Below are positions 32,287-39,805 of a stretch of 64,000 nt of DNA, piece by piece. The notes beneath the pieces were generated by a model. The model saw only the letters and a program-made list of their open reading frames with translations. It had not been told where the DNA came from and searched no databases. Within the stretch, counting starts at the first letter, position 1. The number at the start of each line of letters is the position of its first letter. The stretch lies in the sequence record MK327943.1. One strand, given 5' to 3'. Source of the stretch: Escherichia phage vB_EcoM_G53. Both the position numbers and the translations under genes were made by a program.

Positions 32287-32745
32287 TTATAGGAGTGTAG
32301 TGAGCACCTTATATAATGATTTACCCATTACATATTCCCATTGAGAAGGTTTAATTAAAGCGAATGCATCAAATTCAGGAATCTGTCGTCCGTCTGGGAA
32401 TGTATGATAGGAATTACAAACACTGTTTCTGAATTGCTCGTGCTCTACAGGGATGGTATATAGGAACAGATGAATATTCTTATTGTCTGAGTAATGATGT
32501 TCACCTAGGTCTTTCAGGAAGGCAGGGTCATATTGTGTAAACCCGGTTTCTTCTTCGCATTCGCGAATAGCGGCTTCAATAGGAGATTCGCCAGGTTCGA
32601 CACGGCCTTTAGGAATATCCCACCGATGAGCTAATGCACCTTTAGGACGAGAACCAGTTACACGGCCCATGAATAACTCTTTATCTTTTGACATGAAGAT
32701 AATACCGGCTGATAGCTCTTTCACTTTATTTTTCTTACTCATCAT
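32287..32745 (-). CDS. nudE: Nudix hydrolase NudE
   Basis: 152 aa; Nudix box GRVEPGESPIEAAIRECEEETG; position next to e as in T4. Confidence 0.85.
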   Translation of the reverse strand: MMSKKNKVKELSAGIIFMSKDKELFMGRVTGSRPKGALAHRWDIPKGRVEPGESPIEAAIRECEEETGFTQYDPAFLKDLGEHHYSDNKNIHLFLYTIPVEHEQFRNSVCNSYHTFPDGRQIPEFDAFALIKPSQWEYVMGKSLYKVLTTLL

Positions 32746-32971
32746 CTCGGTCCCATGATTTGGCCATTAATTCGGACATAAATTCTTCAATGCGCGTTTC
32801 TTTAGATGGACTTTCACTATTAGAGACCGCAAGTTTGTAATCTGCAATAGGACAGAACATATCAAGGTCCATATTAAGGTCGTCTTTGATTTTTTCTTCT
32901 GACACATCTTTATCGTATGTGTACAGATAACTATCACATGATTCTGATTTAATGTAAATTGCTATACTCAT
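32735..32971 (-). CDS. Hypothetical acidic protein
   Basis: 78 aa from MSIAIYIKSESCD; start overlaps the upstream stop. Confidence 0.5.
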   Translation of the reverse strand: MSIAIYIKSESCDSYLYTYDKDVSEEKIKDDLNMDLDMFCPIADYKLAVSNSESPSKETRIEEFMSELMAKSWDRDDE

Positions 32972-33447
32972 CTCAAATTCCTGCATTCGGTAATAAAACG
33001 TTCAACTTCATTATTCTTGGCTTTTATCTTGTCTTTATGTTCTTGTAAACTACTTTTAATAAGATTAATAATGATAGCGACGGTGCCGCCGCCAATGATG
33101 CCACCAATAATACTTACGATAGTAGATGCTAATAAGATAGCAATAATATCAACAAAACCGAAAGAACTCACCTTAGTACTAAAAAACCATACCGACGGTA
33201 CAAATATAATCCATCCTGTTATCCATTGGCACTTATTGAAAAACTTTTCAAGCTCAGCTTGAGTTGTTCGTATTACTTCATCGATAGGTTGATATCCATT
33301 AATGTATCTGTTCACGATAATACCTGCTGGCTGGTCGATTTTAAATTCTTGGCAAATATGTTTCACTAAGTAGGATGGACATCCTGTCCAATCTACTGAA
33401 TAGTATGAAATACCTTCGTTGCCATCGTCTATATTATTGTTAATCAT
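32968..33447 (-). CDS. Hypothetical membrane protein ending in the FIxECR junction motif
   Basis: 159 aa; hydrophobic helices in the middle; C-terminus ...ERFITECRNLR. Confidence 0.55.
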   Translation of the reverse strand: MINNNIDDGNEGISYYSVDWTGCPSYLVKHICQEFKIDQPAGIIVNRYINGYQPIDEVIRTTQAELEKFFNKCQWITGWIIFVPSVWFFSTKVSSFGFVDIIAILLASTIVSIIGGIIGGGTVAIIINLIKSSLQEHKDKIKAKNNEVERFITECRNLR

Positions 33448-34133
33448 TACCAGCCTTCCATAGGGAATTCCAGATAAACTTGAGCATTGACACGAATTTC
33501 ATTGGTAATCTTTTTAACTCGGTCTGTATTACGAGATACACGTCCGAACCAACGCCATCCATTACTAATTGCACGAGAACCAGTGTGCCATGTTTGCCAA
33601 TCAAACTGAAGAAGAGTACGGTCTGGAGCTTCCCATTTCTCTAGTTCACCTTTTTCAATTTTTTCGAGGACTTCTTTGTGCCACTGACGATAGATAAGTT
33701 CGCCATCAGGAATCTGACTGAACTCTGCAGTTCCTGTTGCAAAATGAGTAGGACACACATCAGCGTTAACAAGACCAAGAATATGTTCAGAATGGTAACG
33801 AGGGTTGTCATAGTCAGGTTGTCCTGCAGTAATAAAGTGTTGTCCAACTGGAATATCAGGGCGTGGAACATCGTCATGGTGATATCCAGGAATAGCAGGG
33901 TACCAACCAGGCATCAGCATATGAACCCGAGAATCAAATACAACATGTTGATTAGTCCAATCAATTGGGAGATTGGCAATAAAGCTACGAGTGATTGAGC
34001 CACCATTATCCCAAGCAAAACCCAAATCACAATTAAAGAACATTGGTTCATTTTTGATTCGGTCATTTTGTACGTTATGTGCAAAACTACCAACTGCACG
34101 AGCTTGACTATTAAACACTTTAGAACTATTCAT
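33447..34133 (-). CDS. Hypothetical protein (228 aa), His/Trp-rich
   Basis: Long ORF; contains HHDD and several His; fold not recognised by eye. Confidence 0.6.
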   Translation of the reverse strand: MNSSKVFNSQARAVGSFAHNVQNDRIKNEPMFFNCDLGFAWDNGGSITRSFIANLPIDWTNQHVVFDSRVHMLMPGWYPAIPGYHHDDVPRPDIPVGQHFITAGQPDYDNPRYHSEHILGLVNADVCPTHFATGTAEFSQIPDGELIYRQWHKEVLEKIEKGELEKWEAPDRTLLQFDWQTWHTGSRAISNGWRWFGRVSRNTDRVKKITNEIRVNAQVYLEFPMEGW

Positions 34134-34134
34134 A

Positions 34135-34440
34135 TTATTTTCCTCGACATTCTTTAATGAAATTTTCTAGATTGGTAGATTCAATAGCTTTTTTACGAGC
34201 TTCTGTGTGTTCTTCTTCGGACAATTTACGTTTATAATTGACCCAGACATTATGGTCGAAACCAGACGTGGCATATAATAACAAAGCTCCAACGAATAGC
34301 AAAAATGGTGATAAAAATATACAACCAGGAACACCATCCATACTGTAAGCCTTTTGTAATACTGCAACAGAAAGAGTTGCGTAAAAAGGTGATGCAAGTA
34401 TTGTTAAAAGGCCAATTCGGTTGGTTTCGCCTAATTTCAT
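34135..34440 (-). CDS. Hypothetical membrane protein ending in the FIKECR junction motif
   Basis: 101 aa; two hydrophobic helices; C-terminus ...NLENFIKECRGK. Confidence 0.55.
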   Translation of the reverse strand: MKLGETNRIGLLTILASPFYATLSVAVLQKAYSMDGVPGCIFLSPFLLFVGALLLYATSGFDHNVWVNYKRKLSEEEHTEARKKAIESTNLENFIKECRGK

Positions 34441-34498
34441 AATATTCTCCTCATGTTTTAATAGGACTACTATAATATAGCCCTATCAGTTTGTACAC

Positions 34499-34699
34499 TT
34501 ATTTTGACATTTCTTCGATGTCACGACGATACCCATCACGAACTTCACGAAGAGCTTCAAGGCCACACATAGGCTCGATACCAGTAATGTGAACTTGATT
34601 AATCTGATACTCTACATCTTCTAACTGAGCGAAAACATAACGACGTTCTGCTGCACAACCAGGTTTAGCTTTACCGAAACGTTTATTCAAAGTAGTCAT
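34499..34699 (-). CDS. Hypothetical protein
   Basis: 66 aa from MTTLNKRFGKAKPG with SD GGAG. Confidence 0.45.
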   Translation of the reverse strand: MTTLNKRFGKAKPGCAAERRYVFAQLEDVEYQINQVHITGIEPMCGLEALREVRDGYRRDIEEMSK

Positions 34700-34779
34700 T
34701 TTTATATCTCCATTCACTCATTTGTTTTGATAGGTCTATAGTATCAACAACTACAGACCTTGTAAACTGTTTTGCGAAA

Positions 34780-35736
34780 TTATTTGAAAGGTTTTACCAT
34801 ATGGAAATTTTGTTTGAAACGTTTGACGTAATCGTCGTGTCCTAAGCTTTGGTACATACTTACTACTTTGCTATAATTTTCCCAAGCGAACTCACGGAAC
34901 CATCCTGATGTGATTGATGTACAGACCTTTTCAAGGGCCATCATAAAACTATCACGTGGATGGATTTTAAAGTCGTTAGGAATCTGTGAACGTTCAAGAG
35001 CTAATACACAAGCTTCTTCATATACACCGGCTAATTTAACCATTTCTGGTAATGATTCGAACTTCTCGCGTGATGTCATAACTTCTGAGCCTTCTTTCAT
35101 ATAAAACTTATAAGCAGGCTGGTCAGTTAGTGCAATGGCTTCATGGATAGTATCATGGTCATACGTATAGATGTCATCTTTAAAGAACGCACTTTTAGAA
35201 GTGTCAAGAACTGGGTGAGCATAATTCAAGGTTTCTTTCTGGCGTTTCAGCATAATTTCAGTAAGTTCATCGTTCAGTGTAACACCTTTACCACGAAGAT
35301 ACTGAATATGGTTCATAGTCTTTAAAAAGAATGGATTATTTTTCTTGAAACGATGAGACATCTTAATTGCAAGACATATCTCAGGAGTTGCCCAGTAAAA
35401 CCCGTTCAAACGGTCTTTAGTCAAATTTTTCTTGGCGTATTTTAAAAGGTCATAAGAAGACGTGAAATCTTCAGGAGTGAGTTCACCGACTAGTTCGCGA
35501 ACGTTAGTGAGAGCCGGAACGATGTATGCTTCAAAATGAGTTTCGCGTCCATTATGGAAGCATTTGAAAACTTGGACATCAGGGTTATCTTGGTGAACAT
35601 ATACACCCATCATTTGATTTTTGAATGCATTCCAAGAACCTTGGTCCGCAATAAAGTCCCAATCACTATTTTTAATAGCGCTAGAATCAATAAGACCGTG
35701 ATAGTGAAGTGCACGAGAACCAATAACTAACATCAT
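34780..35736 (-). CDS. Hypothetical protein (318 aa)
   Basis: Long ORF with dense coding; no motif confidently recognised. Confidence 0.6.
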   Translation of the reverse strand: MMLVIGSRALHYHGLIDSSAIKNSDWDFIADQGSWNAFKNQMMGVYVHQDNPDVQVFKCFHNGRETHFEAYIVPALTNVRELVGELTPEDFTSSYDLLKYAKKNLTKDRLNGFYWATPEICLAIKMSHRFKKNNPFFLKTMNHIQYLRGKGVTLNDELTEIMLKRQKETLNYAHPVLDTSKSAFFKDDIYTYDHDTIHEAIALTDQPAYKFYMKEGSEVMTSREKFESLPEMVKLAGVYEEACVLALERSQIPNDFKIHPRDSFMMALEKVCTSITSGWFREFAWENYSKVVSMYQSLGHDDYVKRFKQNFHMVKPFK

Positions 35737-35764
35737 AATATTTTCCTCGGATTAATTCATTAAC

Positions 35765-36004
35765 TTAAATTTCACGACATGCGATATTATATTCATCCCA
35801 GAGGTCATCATGTGAAGCCTCTACCAATGGAACGATTGTACCGTTTATGTCTTCATTATAAGGGCAAATTGTACAGTGCGCATCTTCGAATCGGATGCCT
35901 TTGTGTTCAGATTTTTTATAACGCATATCGAATATCTTTGCAAACTTTTCACGAGTAATGGTTTTACCAACCACTTTGGTTCCGATACTTTCGTAATAAA
36001 TCAT
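35765..36004 (-). CDS. Hypothetical protein
   Basis: 79 aa from MIYYESIGTK with SD GGAG. Confidence 0.5.
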   Translation of the reverse strand: MIYYESIGTKVVGKTITREKFAKIFDMRYKKSEHKGIRFEDAHCTICPYNEDINGTIVPLVEASHDDLWDEYNIACREI

Positions 36005-36023
36005 TGTGGACTCCATTTGTTTT

Positions 36024-36062
36024 GATAGGACTACTATAACATAGCCCTATCTTGTTGTAAAC
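36024..36062 (-). promoter_or_regulatory. Early promoter / stem-loop cassette
   Basis: gataggactactataacatagccctatc...gtaaac; minus-sense -35 GTTTAC, -10 TATAGT. Confidence 0.55.
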
Positions 36063-36066
36063 TGTT

Positions 36067-36264
36067 TTAGCAAGAATAACTAGATGATACCCAGCCTTGA
36101 ACAGTGATACTATTGTGGGATAATGAGATCGCGTCCTGGAGATTCAGACCTGCGTTATCTTCAATCCATAATGTAACTTCTTCGCGTTCTTCTGTTGCAA
36201 TTTGGAACAGGTTTTCCAGAGCAGCTACTGCCGTACGTACAGCACAATCTAATTCACGAGACAT
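36067..36264 (-). CDS. Small protein, member of the C-terminal GWVSSSxxC family
   Basis: 65 aa ending ...ITVQGWVSSSYSC. Confidence 0.55.
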   Translation of the reverse strand: MSRELDCAVRTAVAALENLFQIATEEREEVTLWIEDNAGLNLQDAISLSHNSITVQGWVSSSYSC

Positions 36265-36273
36265 ATTGTTTCC

Positions 36274-36546
36274 TTAGCAAGTGTGAGAAGATGCGACCCA
36301 ACCACCAGTTTCGAGGCTCAGGTTGTAGTCGTATTGGTAAACGTCAGCCCATTCAGCATAGCCGTTTTTTGTACAACGTTCAAGATCGGCTTTAAGATGT
36401 CCGGGTGAATGATAGGTTCCACCCATACCATAAGCTGGGTACAAGTTGAACGTTGTGTTTTGTTTATCAGCAATTTCTTTGGCAGCCTCAATAGCTGCAT
36501 AGATTTTTGCTACAGCTTCAGCCAGTTCGGTTTGTTCTTTAGACAT
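36274..36546 (-). CDS. Small protein, member of the C-terminal GWVSSSxxC family
   Basis: 90 aa ending ...ETGGWVASSHTC; N-terminal region similar to 36556-36861. Confidence 0.55.
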   Translation of the reverse strand: MSKEQTELAEAVAKIYAAIEAAKEIADKQNTTFNLYPAYGMGGTYHSPGHLKADLERCTKNGYAEWADVYQYDYNLSLETGGWVASSHTC

Positions 36547-36555
36547 AACGATTCC

Positions 36556-36861
36556 TTAGCACAACGCAGAAGACGAAACCCAAGCACCTTCAGTAATAAC
36601 GTAACCATTACCTTCACGCTTAACATCGCCACCATTATTTTCAATTTCATCTTTCATCCACTGGGATACGATTTCACCCTTAGGATAATAAGTACGACCG
36701 CTACCATAATCACCTACAGAAAATGATACGGCATATTGGTCTGCGATCTTTGTTGCTTCTTCTTCGATACGTTCAGCTTGATTCAGAAGTTTATAAATTG
36801 CATCTGAAGCGGATTTGGCATCATTAAACTCTGGTACTTTAATTTCAATAATCTTACTCAT
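36556..36861 (-). CDS. Small protein, member of the C-terminal GWVSSSxxC family
   Basis: 101 aa ending ...EGAWVSSSALC. Confidence 0.55.
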   Translation of the reverse strand: MSKIIEIKVPEFNDAKSASDAIYKLLNQAERIEEEATKIADQYAVSFSVGDYGSGRTYYPKGEIVSQWMKDEIENNGGDVKREGNGYVITEGAWVSSSALC

Positions 36862-37217
36862 TTTCTACATTCCTTAATAAAGTTTTCGATTGTTTCATTT
36901 TCACGTTTAGCTAGAAGTTCATTATAACTAATCATTTGAGAAGCGTAAATCTTTTTATTTTTCTTGTTATGGTTTATAAAATCGTAGTAAAAATAGACTA
37001 CAGTACAAAATGATGCGATGGATGCAAAGGCTTGGGTATACCGTAAGTCCTGCCATTGGTCTGTGAATCCACCAGTGTTCCCTATAAATCCTAACACAAC
37101 GCCGTCAATAAGAAATCCAACTAATCCAAAGGCAAATCCCATGCCAATACTCATAATAAAAATTAGAATGTTCTCACCAAGAGAAGGCCATACGGTTAAG
37201 AGTTGAGGCTTTTGCAT
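36858..37217 (-). CDS. Hypothetical membrane protein ending in the FIKECR junction motif
   Basis: 119 aa; three hydrophobic segments; C-terminus ...ETIENFIKECRK. Confidence 0.55.
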   Translation of the reverse strand: MQKPQLLTVWPSLGENILIFIMSIGMGFAFGLVGFLIDGVVLGFIGNTGGFTDQWQDLRYTQAFASIASFCTVVYFYYDFINHNKKNKKIYASQMISYNELLAKRENETIENFIKECRK

Positions 37218-37591
37218 CTTATTTCCTTAACGAATTCCATAGCTTCTTCATATTCATACTTTTTAACAGCTTCATCATACTGAGCTTGGGCTTTTGCGCA
37301 CTGAACTTTCCATTCTCTTAATCGGGCTCTGTGATGACGGCCTTGGTGCCAATATCCTACCCAATTAATAGGCATTAATAAAAACGGTACAATAAGTGGT
37401 GCGACGAACATTAATGAAAATGCTGCATCAGACGATATAACTTCACTAGAATCTAAAACAGCTCCTATAATCATAAAGATTAAAAATGCTAAAGCTAAAA
37501 TAGGGCCAAATAATACTTCATTTGGGATTAATTTACGCTTGTATTCATACGCCCAGGGCTTACTTGGCATGTATAGGGTTGGCTTTGACAT
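37196..37591 (-). CDS. Hypothetical membrane protein
   Basis: 131 aa from MSKPTLYMPSKPW; two hydrophobic helices; C-terminus ...AMEFVKEIRCKSLNS overlaps the next SD and start. Confidence 0.5.
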   Translation of the reverse strand: MSKPTLYMPSKPWAYEYKRKLIPNEVLFGPILALAFLIFMIIGAVLDSSEVISSDAAFSLMFVAPLIVPFLLMPINWVGYWHQGRHHRARLREWKVQCAKAQAQYDEAVKKYEYEEAMEFVKEIRCKSLNS

Positions 37592-38162
37592 ATTCTCTAC
37601 ATTCCATAATAAATTGCTCAAGGATTAAATTGTTAGTGAAATTAGGACTAACAACCATAGTTTCATAAAGCGCATCAATAGCACTTAAAGCATCAACTCT
37701 TTTAAGCAAAGGCTTGCCTTCATACATAGTTTCAGAATCGATGATTAACGTAAAGTAATATTTTTTATTATCGACTAGAACTTCTGTATCGATATAAAAC
37801 ATATTAGACCTCAGAAGCTTATCTCTAAAGCCATAATAATCTTCAGAGCGTTCGCTGATATATTCCCATTCAGTGTTTAAACAACAAACAGACCACGTAG
37901 GAGCAACGAAATCAGTGAATCTAATATCATGGTCTGCAACTAGTTTAGCAATAGCTCCGATATCATGAATCATAATACCTGGGGCTAATAAAGATTTTCT
38001 GCTATGGCTAGCCGTTTTCTCGGTGGTCTCATAAGAAGACGACCAGTACCATTTACGTCCGGTTGCAACATATCGTAATGAATCAACTAAAGACGTAGGT
38101 GGATTTACCTTATCTCGGAACTCTTCGAACATTGAGTCAATATCATTATTTTGGTTTCGCAT
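37560..38162 (-). CDS. Hypothetical protein (200 aa) with FIMECR near the C-terminus
   Basis: Start MRNQNNDIDSMFEEF with SD AAAGGAG; ends ...LEQFIMECREYVKANPIHAK, overlapping the next gene start by 32 nt. Confidence 0.55.
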   Translation of the reverse strand: MRNQNNDIDSMFEEFRDKVNPPTSLVDSLRYVATGRKWYWSSSYETTEKTASHSRKSLLAPGIMIHDIGAIAKLVADHDIRFTDFVAPTWSVCCLNTEWEYISERSEDYYGFRDKLLRSNMFYIDTEVLVDNKKYYFTLIIDSETMYEGKPLLKRVDALSAIDALYETMVVSPNFTNNLILEQFIMECREYVKANPIHAK

Positions 38163-38180: not shown

Positions 38181-38203
38181 CAAAAGGAGGACCGGAGTCC
38201 TCC
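38181..38203 (-). terminator. Terminator-like hairpin GGAGGAC-CGGA-GTCCTCC (T-runs on both strands)
   Basis: Minus-sense hairpin followed by TTTTGG; plus-sense followed by GTATTATTTTATTT. Confidence 0.55.
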
Positions 38204-39103: not shown

Positions 39104-39164
39104 TTTGTTTTCCTCTCATTTGATTTGATAGGTCTATAGTAACACCGTCCTTGGTGTTTGTACA

Positions 39165-39668: not shown

Positions 39669-39805
39669 AATGTTTTCCTCATTTGTTTTGATAGGTCTAT
39701 AGTATCATACCTCAAGGAGAAGTAAACAACTTTGTGAAAAATTTATCTGCCCTAGATGCCCGAAAGCCCCTTCCTATGGTTGGGGCTTAAGTGATTGTAA
39801 CTTAA

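Follow-up and report, generated by a model that had tools for sequence, protein, structure and literature searches.

Shared gene ends in the e.2–e.5 region

The subject of this analysis is a short C-terminal peptide motif, F[IV].ECR, that recurs at the ends of neighbouring minus-strand genes in a 64,000-nucleotide stretch of the Escherichia phage vB_EcoM_G53 genome (sequence record MK327943.1; hereafter the window), together with the starts of the genes that follow. The 5.6-kb region shares 95–99% identity with many Mosigvirus genomes, the top match being Escherichia phage mobillu at 98.8%; the window is assigned to Mosigvirus, an RB69-like T-even phage. The identities of the five genes were set from annotated relatives and from the T4 and RB69 reference records (tblastn and annotation transfer). 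They are homologues of e.2, RB69ORF133c (133c below), e.3, e.4 and e.5, direct orthologues of the T4/RB69 genes in the same order, with PHROG matches at E values from 8e-50 to 2e-95. The window copies are 87–100% identical to their Mosigvirus orthologues and 35–47% identical to the T4 copies (47% for e.5 against T4 e.5). All five are placed between e.6 and nudE/e with conserved strand and order; they are early genes that follow one another closely and appear to be translationally coupled. Database proteins that are 96–100% identical to the window proteins carry Pfam families PF26896 (e.2), PF26873 (e.4) and PF26876 (e.5); the window proteins themselves gave zero matches at E≤1 in a local Pfam copy, in which these models were apparently not included. 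The open reading frames (ORFs) of the T4/RB69 e-cluster have been annotated singly, as hypothetical or predicted membrane proteins, and the motif that crosses their families is what differs here.

An earlier note on this DNA had listed five minus-strand genes with related C-terminal endings, and the ORFs and a six-frame translation confirm all five ends and their peptides (Table 1). Translating the window in all six frames yields four occurrences of F[IV].ECR, each of them at a C-terminus (e.2, 133c, e.3 and e.5), and e.4 carries the variant FVKEIRC. Within the DNA scanned, namely the window, T4 1–50 kb and T4 64–76 kb, the motif is restricted to the e-cluster. At the nucleotide level, the degenerate pattern TTYRTNNNNGARTGYMG has four matches in the window against 0.05 expected, a number reached in 0 of 100 shuffles, and an independent repeat finder grouped the junctions of e.2, e.3 and e.5 into one 22-nt family (D6) with 77–91% identity. 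The 18 nucleotides of the motif have a mean identity of 74% among the five paralogues compared with 23–44% in the flanking coding sequence, so the junctions are indeed more alike than the coding sequence around them, and the outcome named in the earlier note as refuting its view, no greater similarity than in the flanks, did not occur. Just past the motif, at +18 to +29, the identity of the paralogous junctions is 28%.

Table 1. Genes, motif sites and other features in and around the e.2–e.5 region. Protein ends are given up to the stop codon; SD, Shine–Dalgarno sequence; TM, transmembrane segment.
Feature	Positions	Strand	Remarks
e.2 homologue (RB69p131 type), 159 aa	32968–33447	−	N-terminal soluble domain, 2 hydrophobic segments, charged tail; ends FITECRNLR; phrog_2203, E 7e-51
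133c homologue, 101 aa	34135–34440	−	Two-TM hairpin and charged tail; ends FIKECRGK; phrog_9798, E 7e-64; weak phrog_2203 match
e.3 homologue, 119 aa	36858–37217	−	Two-TM hairpin, TM2 one long helix to the C-terminus; ends FIKECRK
e.4 homologue, 131 aa from ATG 37591	37196–37591	−	Two-TM hairpin and charged tail; ends FVKEIRCKSLNS; phrog_2604, E 3e-64
e.5 homologue, 200 aa	37560–38162	−	Soluble, no TM; C-terminal helix with FIMECR, then an 11-residue tail overlapping e.4; ends FIMECREYVKANPIHAK; phrog_2607, E 2e-95
e.2 motif codons TTT ATT ACC GAA TGC AGG (FITECR)	32980–32997	−	Best anti-SD match CAGGAA, 32978–32983
RB69ORF130c homologue ATG	32969–32971	−	Overlaps the e.2 stop (ATGA)
133c motif codons TTC ATT AAA GAA TGT CGA (FIKECR)	34144–34161	−	SD CGAGGA, 34141–34146; ORF132c homologue ATG, 34131–34133
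e.3 motif codons TTT ATT AAG GAA TGT AGA (FIKECR)	36864–36881	−	SD TTAAGGAA, 36870–36877; next ATG, 36859–36861, overlaps the stop (ATGA)
e.4 variant codons TTC GTT AAG GAA ATA AGA (FVKEIR)	37217–37234	−	SD TTAAGGAA, 37223–37230; e.3 ATG, 37215–37217, straddles the Arg/Cys codons
e.5 motif codons TTT ATT ATG GAA TGT AGA (FIMECR)	37596–37613	−	e.4 ATG, 37589–37591; weak SD match TGGAA, 10-nt spacer
Spurious longer ORF of the ORF130c homologue	32735–32986	−	Begins MQEFEMSIAIY... at the out-of-frame ATG at 32986
RB69ORF132c homologue, 228 aa	33447–34133	−	phrog_1843; very conserved; no Pfam match
DUF7277+DUF7275 protein, 318 aa	34780–35736	−
Gene ending WVSSSALC	36556–36861	−	Small, soluble
Gene ending WVASSHTC	36274–36546	−	Small, soluble
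Gene ending WVSSSYSC, 65 aa	36067–36264	−	Small, soluble
Intergenic repeat of ~46 nt, 5 copies	34450–34495; 34719–34764; 36014–36059; 39117–39162; 39680–39725	−	GTTTACA-17 nt-TATAGT; inverted repeat TAGG(G/A)CTA around the −10; 3 of 5 also in the promoter scan
Hairpin, likely an intrinsic terminator	38186–38203		Between e.6 and e.5; strong, GC-rich, then a T-run (GGAGGACTCCGGTCCTCC TTTT); readable on both strands

Codon variation and probable coupling to the next gene

At all five junctions the start of the next gene overlaps or abuts the stop, as ATGA at e.2 and e.3, with a 2-nt gap at 133c, and with overlaps of 22 nt at e.4 and 32 nt at e.5. The last figure, given in the earlier note, holds for the e.4 start at ATG 37591 used in the T4 annotation, whereas with the start at 37570 used in the RB69 annotation the overlap is 11 nt. 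Duplexes with the 3′ end of 16S rRNA reach −4.3 to −6.1 kcal/mol with 5–8-nt spacers at four junctions, and the duplex is weak for e.5 to e.4 (−3.3 kcal/mol, 10-nt spacer). It had also been claimed that an AAGGAA within the motif supplies the SD together with the ATG of the next gene; this is the case in e.3 and e.4, but not in e.5 (ATGGAA), 133c (AAAGAA) or e.2 (ACCGAA). No significant RNA structure was found at the junctions (z from −1.4 to +1.9), and an explanation in terms of an RNA element was therefore dropped.

To separate constraint on the peptide from constraint on the DNA, we gathered junctions from relatives of the window and from six further genera, the sources being RB69, T4, T4-like IMG/VR contigs, Gaprivervirus RZ, two Dhakavirus phages, Kanagawavirus CIP9 and PEi20, and Marfavirus; codons were counted in the 33 distinct junction sequences of the first five genera. 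The motif Phe is encoded by TTT or TTC, the Ile/Val by ATT, ATC, GTT or GTG, the Cys by TGT (16) or TGC (10), and the Arg by AGA (10), AGG (9), CGA (4), CGT (5) or CGC (2), with Lys (AAA) in three. Position x, before the Glu, is T, K, M, I, S, A or E. Among the four exact motifs of the window, identity is 90% at first, 100% at second and 70% at third codon positions. Switching between AGR and CGN codons with the Arg kept is a classic signature of selection on amino acids. The same residues stand out within families that are otherwise 13–30% identical: of the five columns that never vary in the e.2 family (7 sequences, with identity down to 13%), three are F, C and R, and these residues also make up three of the nine such columns in the e.5 family.

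The motif is also kept in Gaprivervirus, Dhakavirus, Kanagawavirus and Marfavirus, and every set contains at least three motif-bearing genes per genome, co-transcribed and coupled. Its core is [LIVM]-x-x-F-[IV]-x-[ED]-C-[RK], which widens in distant genera to [FW]-[IVLA]-x-x-[CIVLS]-[RK]. In distant phages, e.5-like proteins end in FVDQCR, FVEQCR or FIKHCR, e.2-like proteins in FVKGCR, FIKGCR or, at the stop, WIKGCRK, and the positional orthologues of 133c in FASQVRK or FAKELR at the stop. An unrelated soluble family of 96–102 aa, found in Kanagawavirus and Marfavirus and not in the window, ends in FIKQCR, FIQMCR or FIKYCR. Its three loci (L015 5046–5345, L018 4998–5288 and L019 6960–7268) have the tails FIKQCRRNQNVS, FIQMCRRNQNVSS and FIKYCRGKHVS, each up to the stop, and the gene is coupled to a homologue of the window's 65-aa WVSSSYSC gene.

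The position of the SD relative to the motif is not fixed. The distance from the Phe codon to the next ATG is 17, 19, 20, 22, 26, 28, 40 or about 49 nt. Where the ATG lies 17–22 nt past the Phe codon, the x-Glu codons (TTAAGGAA or TTGAGGAA) pair best with the anti-SD; where it lies at +26 to +28 (e.2 and 133c), the Cys-Arg-next codons do (CAGGAA and CGAGGA); and where it lies at +40 or about +49 (e.5 of RZ, IME341 and CIP9), the best match is outside the motif. Synonymous choice follows these positions. Lys at x is encoded by AAG 15 times and by AAA once, against a background of AAG in 25% of the Lys codons in the long ORFs of the window; AGG accounts for 2.8% of Arg codons, yet it is the Arg codon of e.2 and of T4-type e.3, whose CAGGAA SD it helps to form; and 133c uses CGA-GGA for its SD. 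Ordinary coupled junctions, which are common in phage and bacterial operons (ATGA or TAATG, with the SD in the upstream ORF), have the same arrangement and similarly biased codon choice, but they share no conserved peptide, whereas here the peptide is conserved and the SD shifts within or beyond it. One residue is a true by-product, namely the Cys that follows the Arg in e.4 (IRC or SRC), because the overlapping ATG of e.3 is contained in AGA-TGC; Gaprivervirus e.4, in a different overlap frame, reads FIKEVRN.

The suggestion made in the earlier note that the peptide may be a by-product of the junction rather than a functional element would mean that selection acts on the RNA, as a conserved module of SD, spacer and ATG, and that the amino acids are neutral. 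That the SD of the next gene lies inside the motif codons at most junctions, that Lys AAG and Arg AGG, AGA and CGA are over-used relative to the codon usage of the genome, that the e.4 Cys is dictated by the e.3 ATG and that three junctions are 77–91% identical over 22 nt would all be expected from such a module. It does not, however, account for amino acids that stay fixed while the wobble positions and, between AGR and CGN, the first positions vary, nor for the invariance of F, C and R in highly divergent families that keep few other residues fixed. Moreover, the position that would carry the AAG of AAGGAA accepts seven different residues, the SD is drawn from different motif codons in different genes and from none in some e.5 homologues, and the next ATG may lie anywhere from 17 to about 50 nt away. 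As identity falls to 28% just past the motif and the SD moves, one fixed SD–ATG module cannot account for the peptide. The codon data thus largely refute this explanation already, and we regard it as highly improbable. Because the amino acids are fixed while the codons and the distance to the ATG vary, we conclude instead that the motif peptide is under protein-level selection and is the primary constraint, with the SD written into it through synonymous choice and with recombination microhomology, like the embedding of the SD, secondary.

Protein architecture and gene loss

The proteins that carry the motif are of different kinds. In e.2, 133c, e.3 and e.4, two hydrophobic segments precede a basic stretch, and a charged tail of some 30–45 residues completes the protein, while e.5 has no hydrophobic segment; the earlier description of the five as membrane proteins thus applies to the first four and not to e.5. 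In hhalign comparisons, the alignment of e.3 with e.4 spans both proteins in full (89% probability) and that of 133c with e.3 covers 66 columns (91%), whereas e.2 and e.5 match the others solely over 9–27 motif columns. An AlphaFold2 model of e.3 is a hairpin with helices at 9–45 and 53–118, the second of them unbroken, and with its highest predicted local distance difference test (pLDDT) score at the C-terminus (~85), and a low-confidence model of e.5 (27-sequence alignment) has a predicted helix at 178–194. The tails of the hairpin proteins are probably cytoplasmic, judging from the positive-inside rule and the AlphaFold2 model. The motif is independent of the N-terminal module and stands at a helix end. 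On a helical wheel, positions −3 (L/I/V/M), 0 (F), +1 (I/V) and +4 (C, or I/V/L/S in some families) share one face of a charged helix. The tolerance of I, V, L and S at +4 argues for a packing role of this position rather than a thiol role.

It is possible, and we suggest it tentatively, that the motif serves as a shared docking or assembly handle, a specific role that is somewhat less likely than not. In the hairpin proteins the motif would cap a cytoplasmic extension of TM2 of about 40 residues, and in e.5 and the small soluble family of related phages it would lie on the C-terminal helix of a non-membrane domain. The narrow hydrophobic stripe (−3, 0, +1 and +4) on an otherwise highly charged helix could form a contact surface at which, on the cytoplasmic side of the inner membrane, the co-expressed proteins bind mutually or all bind a single partner; the soluble e.5, for example, might be recruited to the hairpin proteins. 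Beyond the peptide, synonymous codons (Lys AAG, the rare Arg AGG, and CGA-GGA) shape the SD of the next gene within or just past the motif, and the 9–20 nt that recur at the gene ends provide microhomology by which unequal recombination removes whole genes in frame with coupling intact.

Other functions for a selected C-terminal peptide have to be weighed against such a handle. A signal read by the cell machinery, either a degron or a nascent peptide that slows the ribosome for re-initiation, would fit a motif that is under selection as a peptide, is independent of the N-terminal domain and always stands 1–15 codons from the stop beside a coupled start. T4 gene 60 bypassing uses a nascent-peptide signal. 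The interval between motif and stop is variable, though, which would correspond to different depths in the exit tunnel. The tails past the motif, of 1–15 residues, are charged or polar and variable, unlike known degrons such as the nonpolar ssrA-type ends (for example, ..LAA), and an ssrA-like proteolysis tag was rejected as a candidate since the nonpolar extreme C-terminus is missing. We consider a signal of either type very unlikely. If the Cys-Arg pair were instead a chemical site, that is, a metal- or cofactor-binding site, a catalytic thiol or a target of the T4 ADP-ribosyltransferases, the invariance of Cys and Arg in the e.2 and e.5 families would be explained, and a 'sulfurtransferase' label in records such as OL964735 might be taken to agree. 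But the place of the Cys is taken by Ile, Ser or Val in e.4, by Val in the e.3-like proteins of Kanagawavirus and by Leu, Val or Ile in the positional orthologues of 133c; the proteins form two-TM hairpins whose tail is one helix; and Pfam, NCBIfam and PDB searches found neither a rhodanese nor any other enzyme domain. A chemical site is the least probable of the explanations considered here.

Gene content at the locus bears on the role of the junctions as DNA. T4-like genomes with e.2 have two similar junctions, the e.3 end ...GATTGTAGGAAAATTAAATGA and the e.2 end ...GAATGCAGGAAATTAAAATGA. In one T4-like contig (L010) the 485-bp e.2 gene is exactly absent, and a hybrid junction, GATTGCAGGAAATTAAAATGAAAACA, leads directly into nudE. 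This hybrid is uninterrupted in 24 of the best 40 Tequatrovirus matches, T2, PST and ZN18 included, and e.2 is present in the other 16, all of them T4 strains and close relatives. In Dhakavirus, which is without e.4, the e.5 tail FIAECREYAKEVQNGTA, up to the stop, is a hybrid of the Gaprivervirus e.5 (…EYAKGVQNA…) and e.4 (…FIKEVRNGTA, up to the stop) tails, and the join falls across similar SD–ATG segments. The losses of e.2 and e.4 are two independent, precise, coupling-preserving deletions at junction repeats, the repeats that bound them being 9–16 nt. Deletions in T4 occur at short repeats. The e.2 and e.4 losses resemble such short-direct-repeat deletion or unequal crossing-over, with repeats that are the most conserved segments of tandem paralogues, and they differ in that the repeats coincide with stop/start junctions, giving clean, in-frame removals that are still coupled. 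Other deletions in the cluster (e.3 in LF82-7, and P0026) do not use the junction. Because the homology is short (9–16 nt), junction recombination is read as a side effect of tandem paralogy and not as the reason for the repeat.

Further rearrangements were seen at the same locus. In LF82-7 (L011 4956–5090) and a phiE142-like contig most of e.3 is deleted and its last 30 codons remain, phage OLB35 has a chimeric e.3/e.4 ORF, and one variant has the N-terminus of e.3 fused out of frame to the ORF130c region. The e-cluster is highly plastic, with every gene dispensable.

The opposite relation, in which the junction is a recombination linker whose repeat is kept for in-frame gene swaps and whose peptide is simply tolerated, would make it a coding counterpart of the PeSL cassettes, the intergenic units of an early promoter with a stem-loop or terminator whose modular shuffling has been described in T4-type genomes (PMC2839356, PMC4122927). 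Like PeSL, the junction is a short gene-boundary repeat in a hyperplastic region and coincides with indel end points (e.2 in T4 versus T2-type phages; e.4 in Gaprivervirus versus Dhakavirus). It differs in lying inside coding sequence, in carrying a selected peptide and in offering only ~9–20 nt of homology, and neither promoter hexamers in the motif nor significant RNA structure at the junction was found. Both independent whole-gene losses have their breakpoints inside the repeated junction, non-homologous proteins (e.5, the soluble 96–102-aa family and the two-TM hairpins) end alike, and the T4-type e.2 and e.3 tails (CRKLK and CRKIK, each up to the stop) are closer to each other than to their orthologues elsewhere, which suggests gene conversion; these observations speak for a linker. 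However, exact homology between junctions is ~9–12 nt, and the synonymous divergence of paralogous junctions works against a kept DNA repeat. The big indel between e.3 and e.2 that distinguishes T4 from Mosigvirus has a motif junction at one side only, the e.3 loss in LF82-7 and the P0026 deletion bypass the junction, and tandem paralogues produce such microhomology without selection. A linker of this kind is clearly unlikely. A combined possibility, in which the junction is a portable, dual-purpose gene end that serves both as a shared helix handle and as an in-operon recombination linker, is also unlikely, if a little less so; were it true, T-even phages could add, drop or swap genes in frame with coupling preserved, and the junction would be a coding counterpart of PeSL that is kept partly for that purpose. 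The view in the earlier note of the junction as a site of coupling or recombination is upheld in so far as the SD and start of the next gene are embedded in it and it has been used as a breakpoint, but not as the cause of the peptide.

The reading that we prefer, with a probability of roughly 0.6, is that a functional peptide is dual-coded with the SD of the next gene and that recombination at the junction is a side effect. Several points weigh against it. Searches of Pfam, NCBIfam, the PDB (by sequence, with the e.5 profile) and the literature yielded no function, partner or phenotype. The e.3 model was built on a very shallow alignment of paralogues, and the e.5 model, with a mean pLDDT of 48, is unusable. 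The codon counts are phylogenetically non-independent, being drawn from some 13 family-by-lineage combinations. No motif stands more than 15 codons from its stop, and that stop always overlaps or adjoins the following gene, which leaves room for a positional link with the junction. Finally, the motif-bearing genes are individually dispensable in nature, T2-type phages having lost e.2, Dhakavirus e.4 and LF82-7 e.3; as each is lost somewhere, the motif cannot be essential.

Database searches place the motif within the T-even phages. A profile of the C-terminal 47 residues, run against an index of 5.8 billion proteins, gave 43 candidates, all fragments of the same families and of no use as a census, although they led to the Pfam accessions given above; a single-sequence search with e.5 gave three matches, and an IMG/VR scan with e.5 gave six loci. 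A HMMER profile of the four window paralogues found nine matches among 1.84 billion cluster representatives, all from T-even e-clusters, so that no wider family of the four membrane paralogues was detectable outside T-even phages among these representatives. Pfam and NCBIfam gave nothing meaningful for the window proteins, the PDB sequence search with the e.5 profile gave nothing, and literature searches on e.3, e.4 and e.5 and on the gene names msp6–8 gave nothing relevant, most subscription journals being outside their coverage. Within that coverage, the cross-family C-terminal motif is real and apparently undescribed.

A motif common to five or six otherwise unrelated families, from T4 to Marfavirus, offers an experimental handle on early T-even genes: one peptide (for example, ETIENFIKECRK) could pull down a common partner or be changed simultaneously in every gene. 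In addition, the locus is a clear natural case in which three constraints fall on the same 18–30 nt, namely the peptide under selection, the ribosome-binding site embedded in its codons and the microhomology for recombination, and it illustrates how precise, coupling-preserving gene loss can arise inside phage operons.

Annotation errors and neighbouring features

The comparison exposed several annotation errors, including a truncated e.2 ORF in T4, a nudE start within the motif and unsupported 'sulfurtransferase' labels. In the T4 reference genome (NC_000866), two frameshifts that compensate each other shorten e.2 (67490–67960) to 102 aa in comparison with T4-like relatives; if read through, the gene would encode ~161 aa and end in NNFITECRKLK at the stop. 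The motif has been hidden in T4 e.2 because the frameshifts split the reference ORF, and other T4 records divide the gene into e.2a and e.2b. The annotated start of T4 nudE (MQEIK-MKTLSAG) is an out-of-frame ATG in the Glu-Cys codons of e.2 (GA-ATG-C). The true start is probably MKTLSAG, because T2-type phages are without the upstream ATG. The Glu-Cys codons of the motif (GAATGY) always yield such an out-of-frame ATG, and in mechanical ORF lists of the window the one at the e.2 end gives the ORF130c homologue a spurious longer ORF, a trap for annotation. The GA-ATG-Y ATG was rejected as an alternative start, since it soon runs into a stop codon in e.3 and its frame is wrong in 133c and e.5. 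The 'sulfurtransferase' label is attached to e.3 and e.4 in several GenBank records, among them OL964735 (a T4 clone), JK36 and ESCO47. A rhodanese-type sulfurtransferase was rejected for these proteins, which have no Pfam or NCBIfam match, are two-TM helical hairpins and, in e.4, do not conserve the Cys.

The hairpin between e.6 and e.5 is likely to be an intrinsic terminator, in which case expression of e.5-e.4-e.3 would require read-through or an unrecognised promoter; a promoter scan placed early-promoter-like sites further along. The five copies of the ~46-nt intergenic repeat have the look of T4-type early promoters joined to a stem-loop, the arrangement that PMC2839356 describes for PeSL cassettes. 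Between the motif-bearing genes lie the ORF132c homologue and the DUF7277+DUF7275 protein, both of which are kept from Mosigvirus to Marfavirus.

A second set of shared gene ends is found in three tandem small soluble paralogues of the window, whose proteins end in W-V-[SA]-S-S-x-x-C at the stop; two of them match the C-terminal part of phrog_899. Like the motif-bearing genes, they combine a conserved C-terminal peptide with a stop–SD–start junction, TAAGGAAAC..ATG (repeat family D5), but their proteins are soluble and end in an unrelated peptide, and it is the stop codon and intergenic bases that make up the SD. Four to five genes of this family are present in Gaprivervirus, Dhakavirus, Kanagawavirus and Marfavirus.

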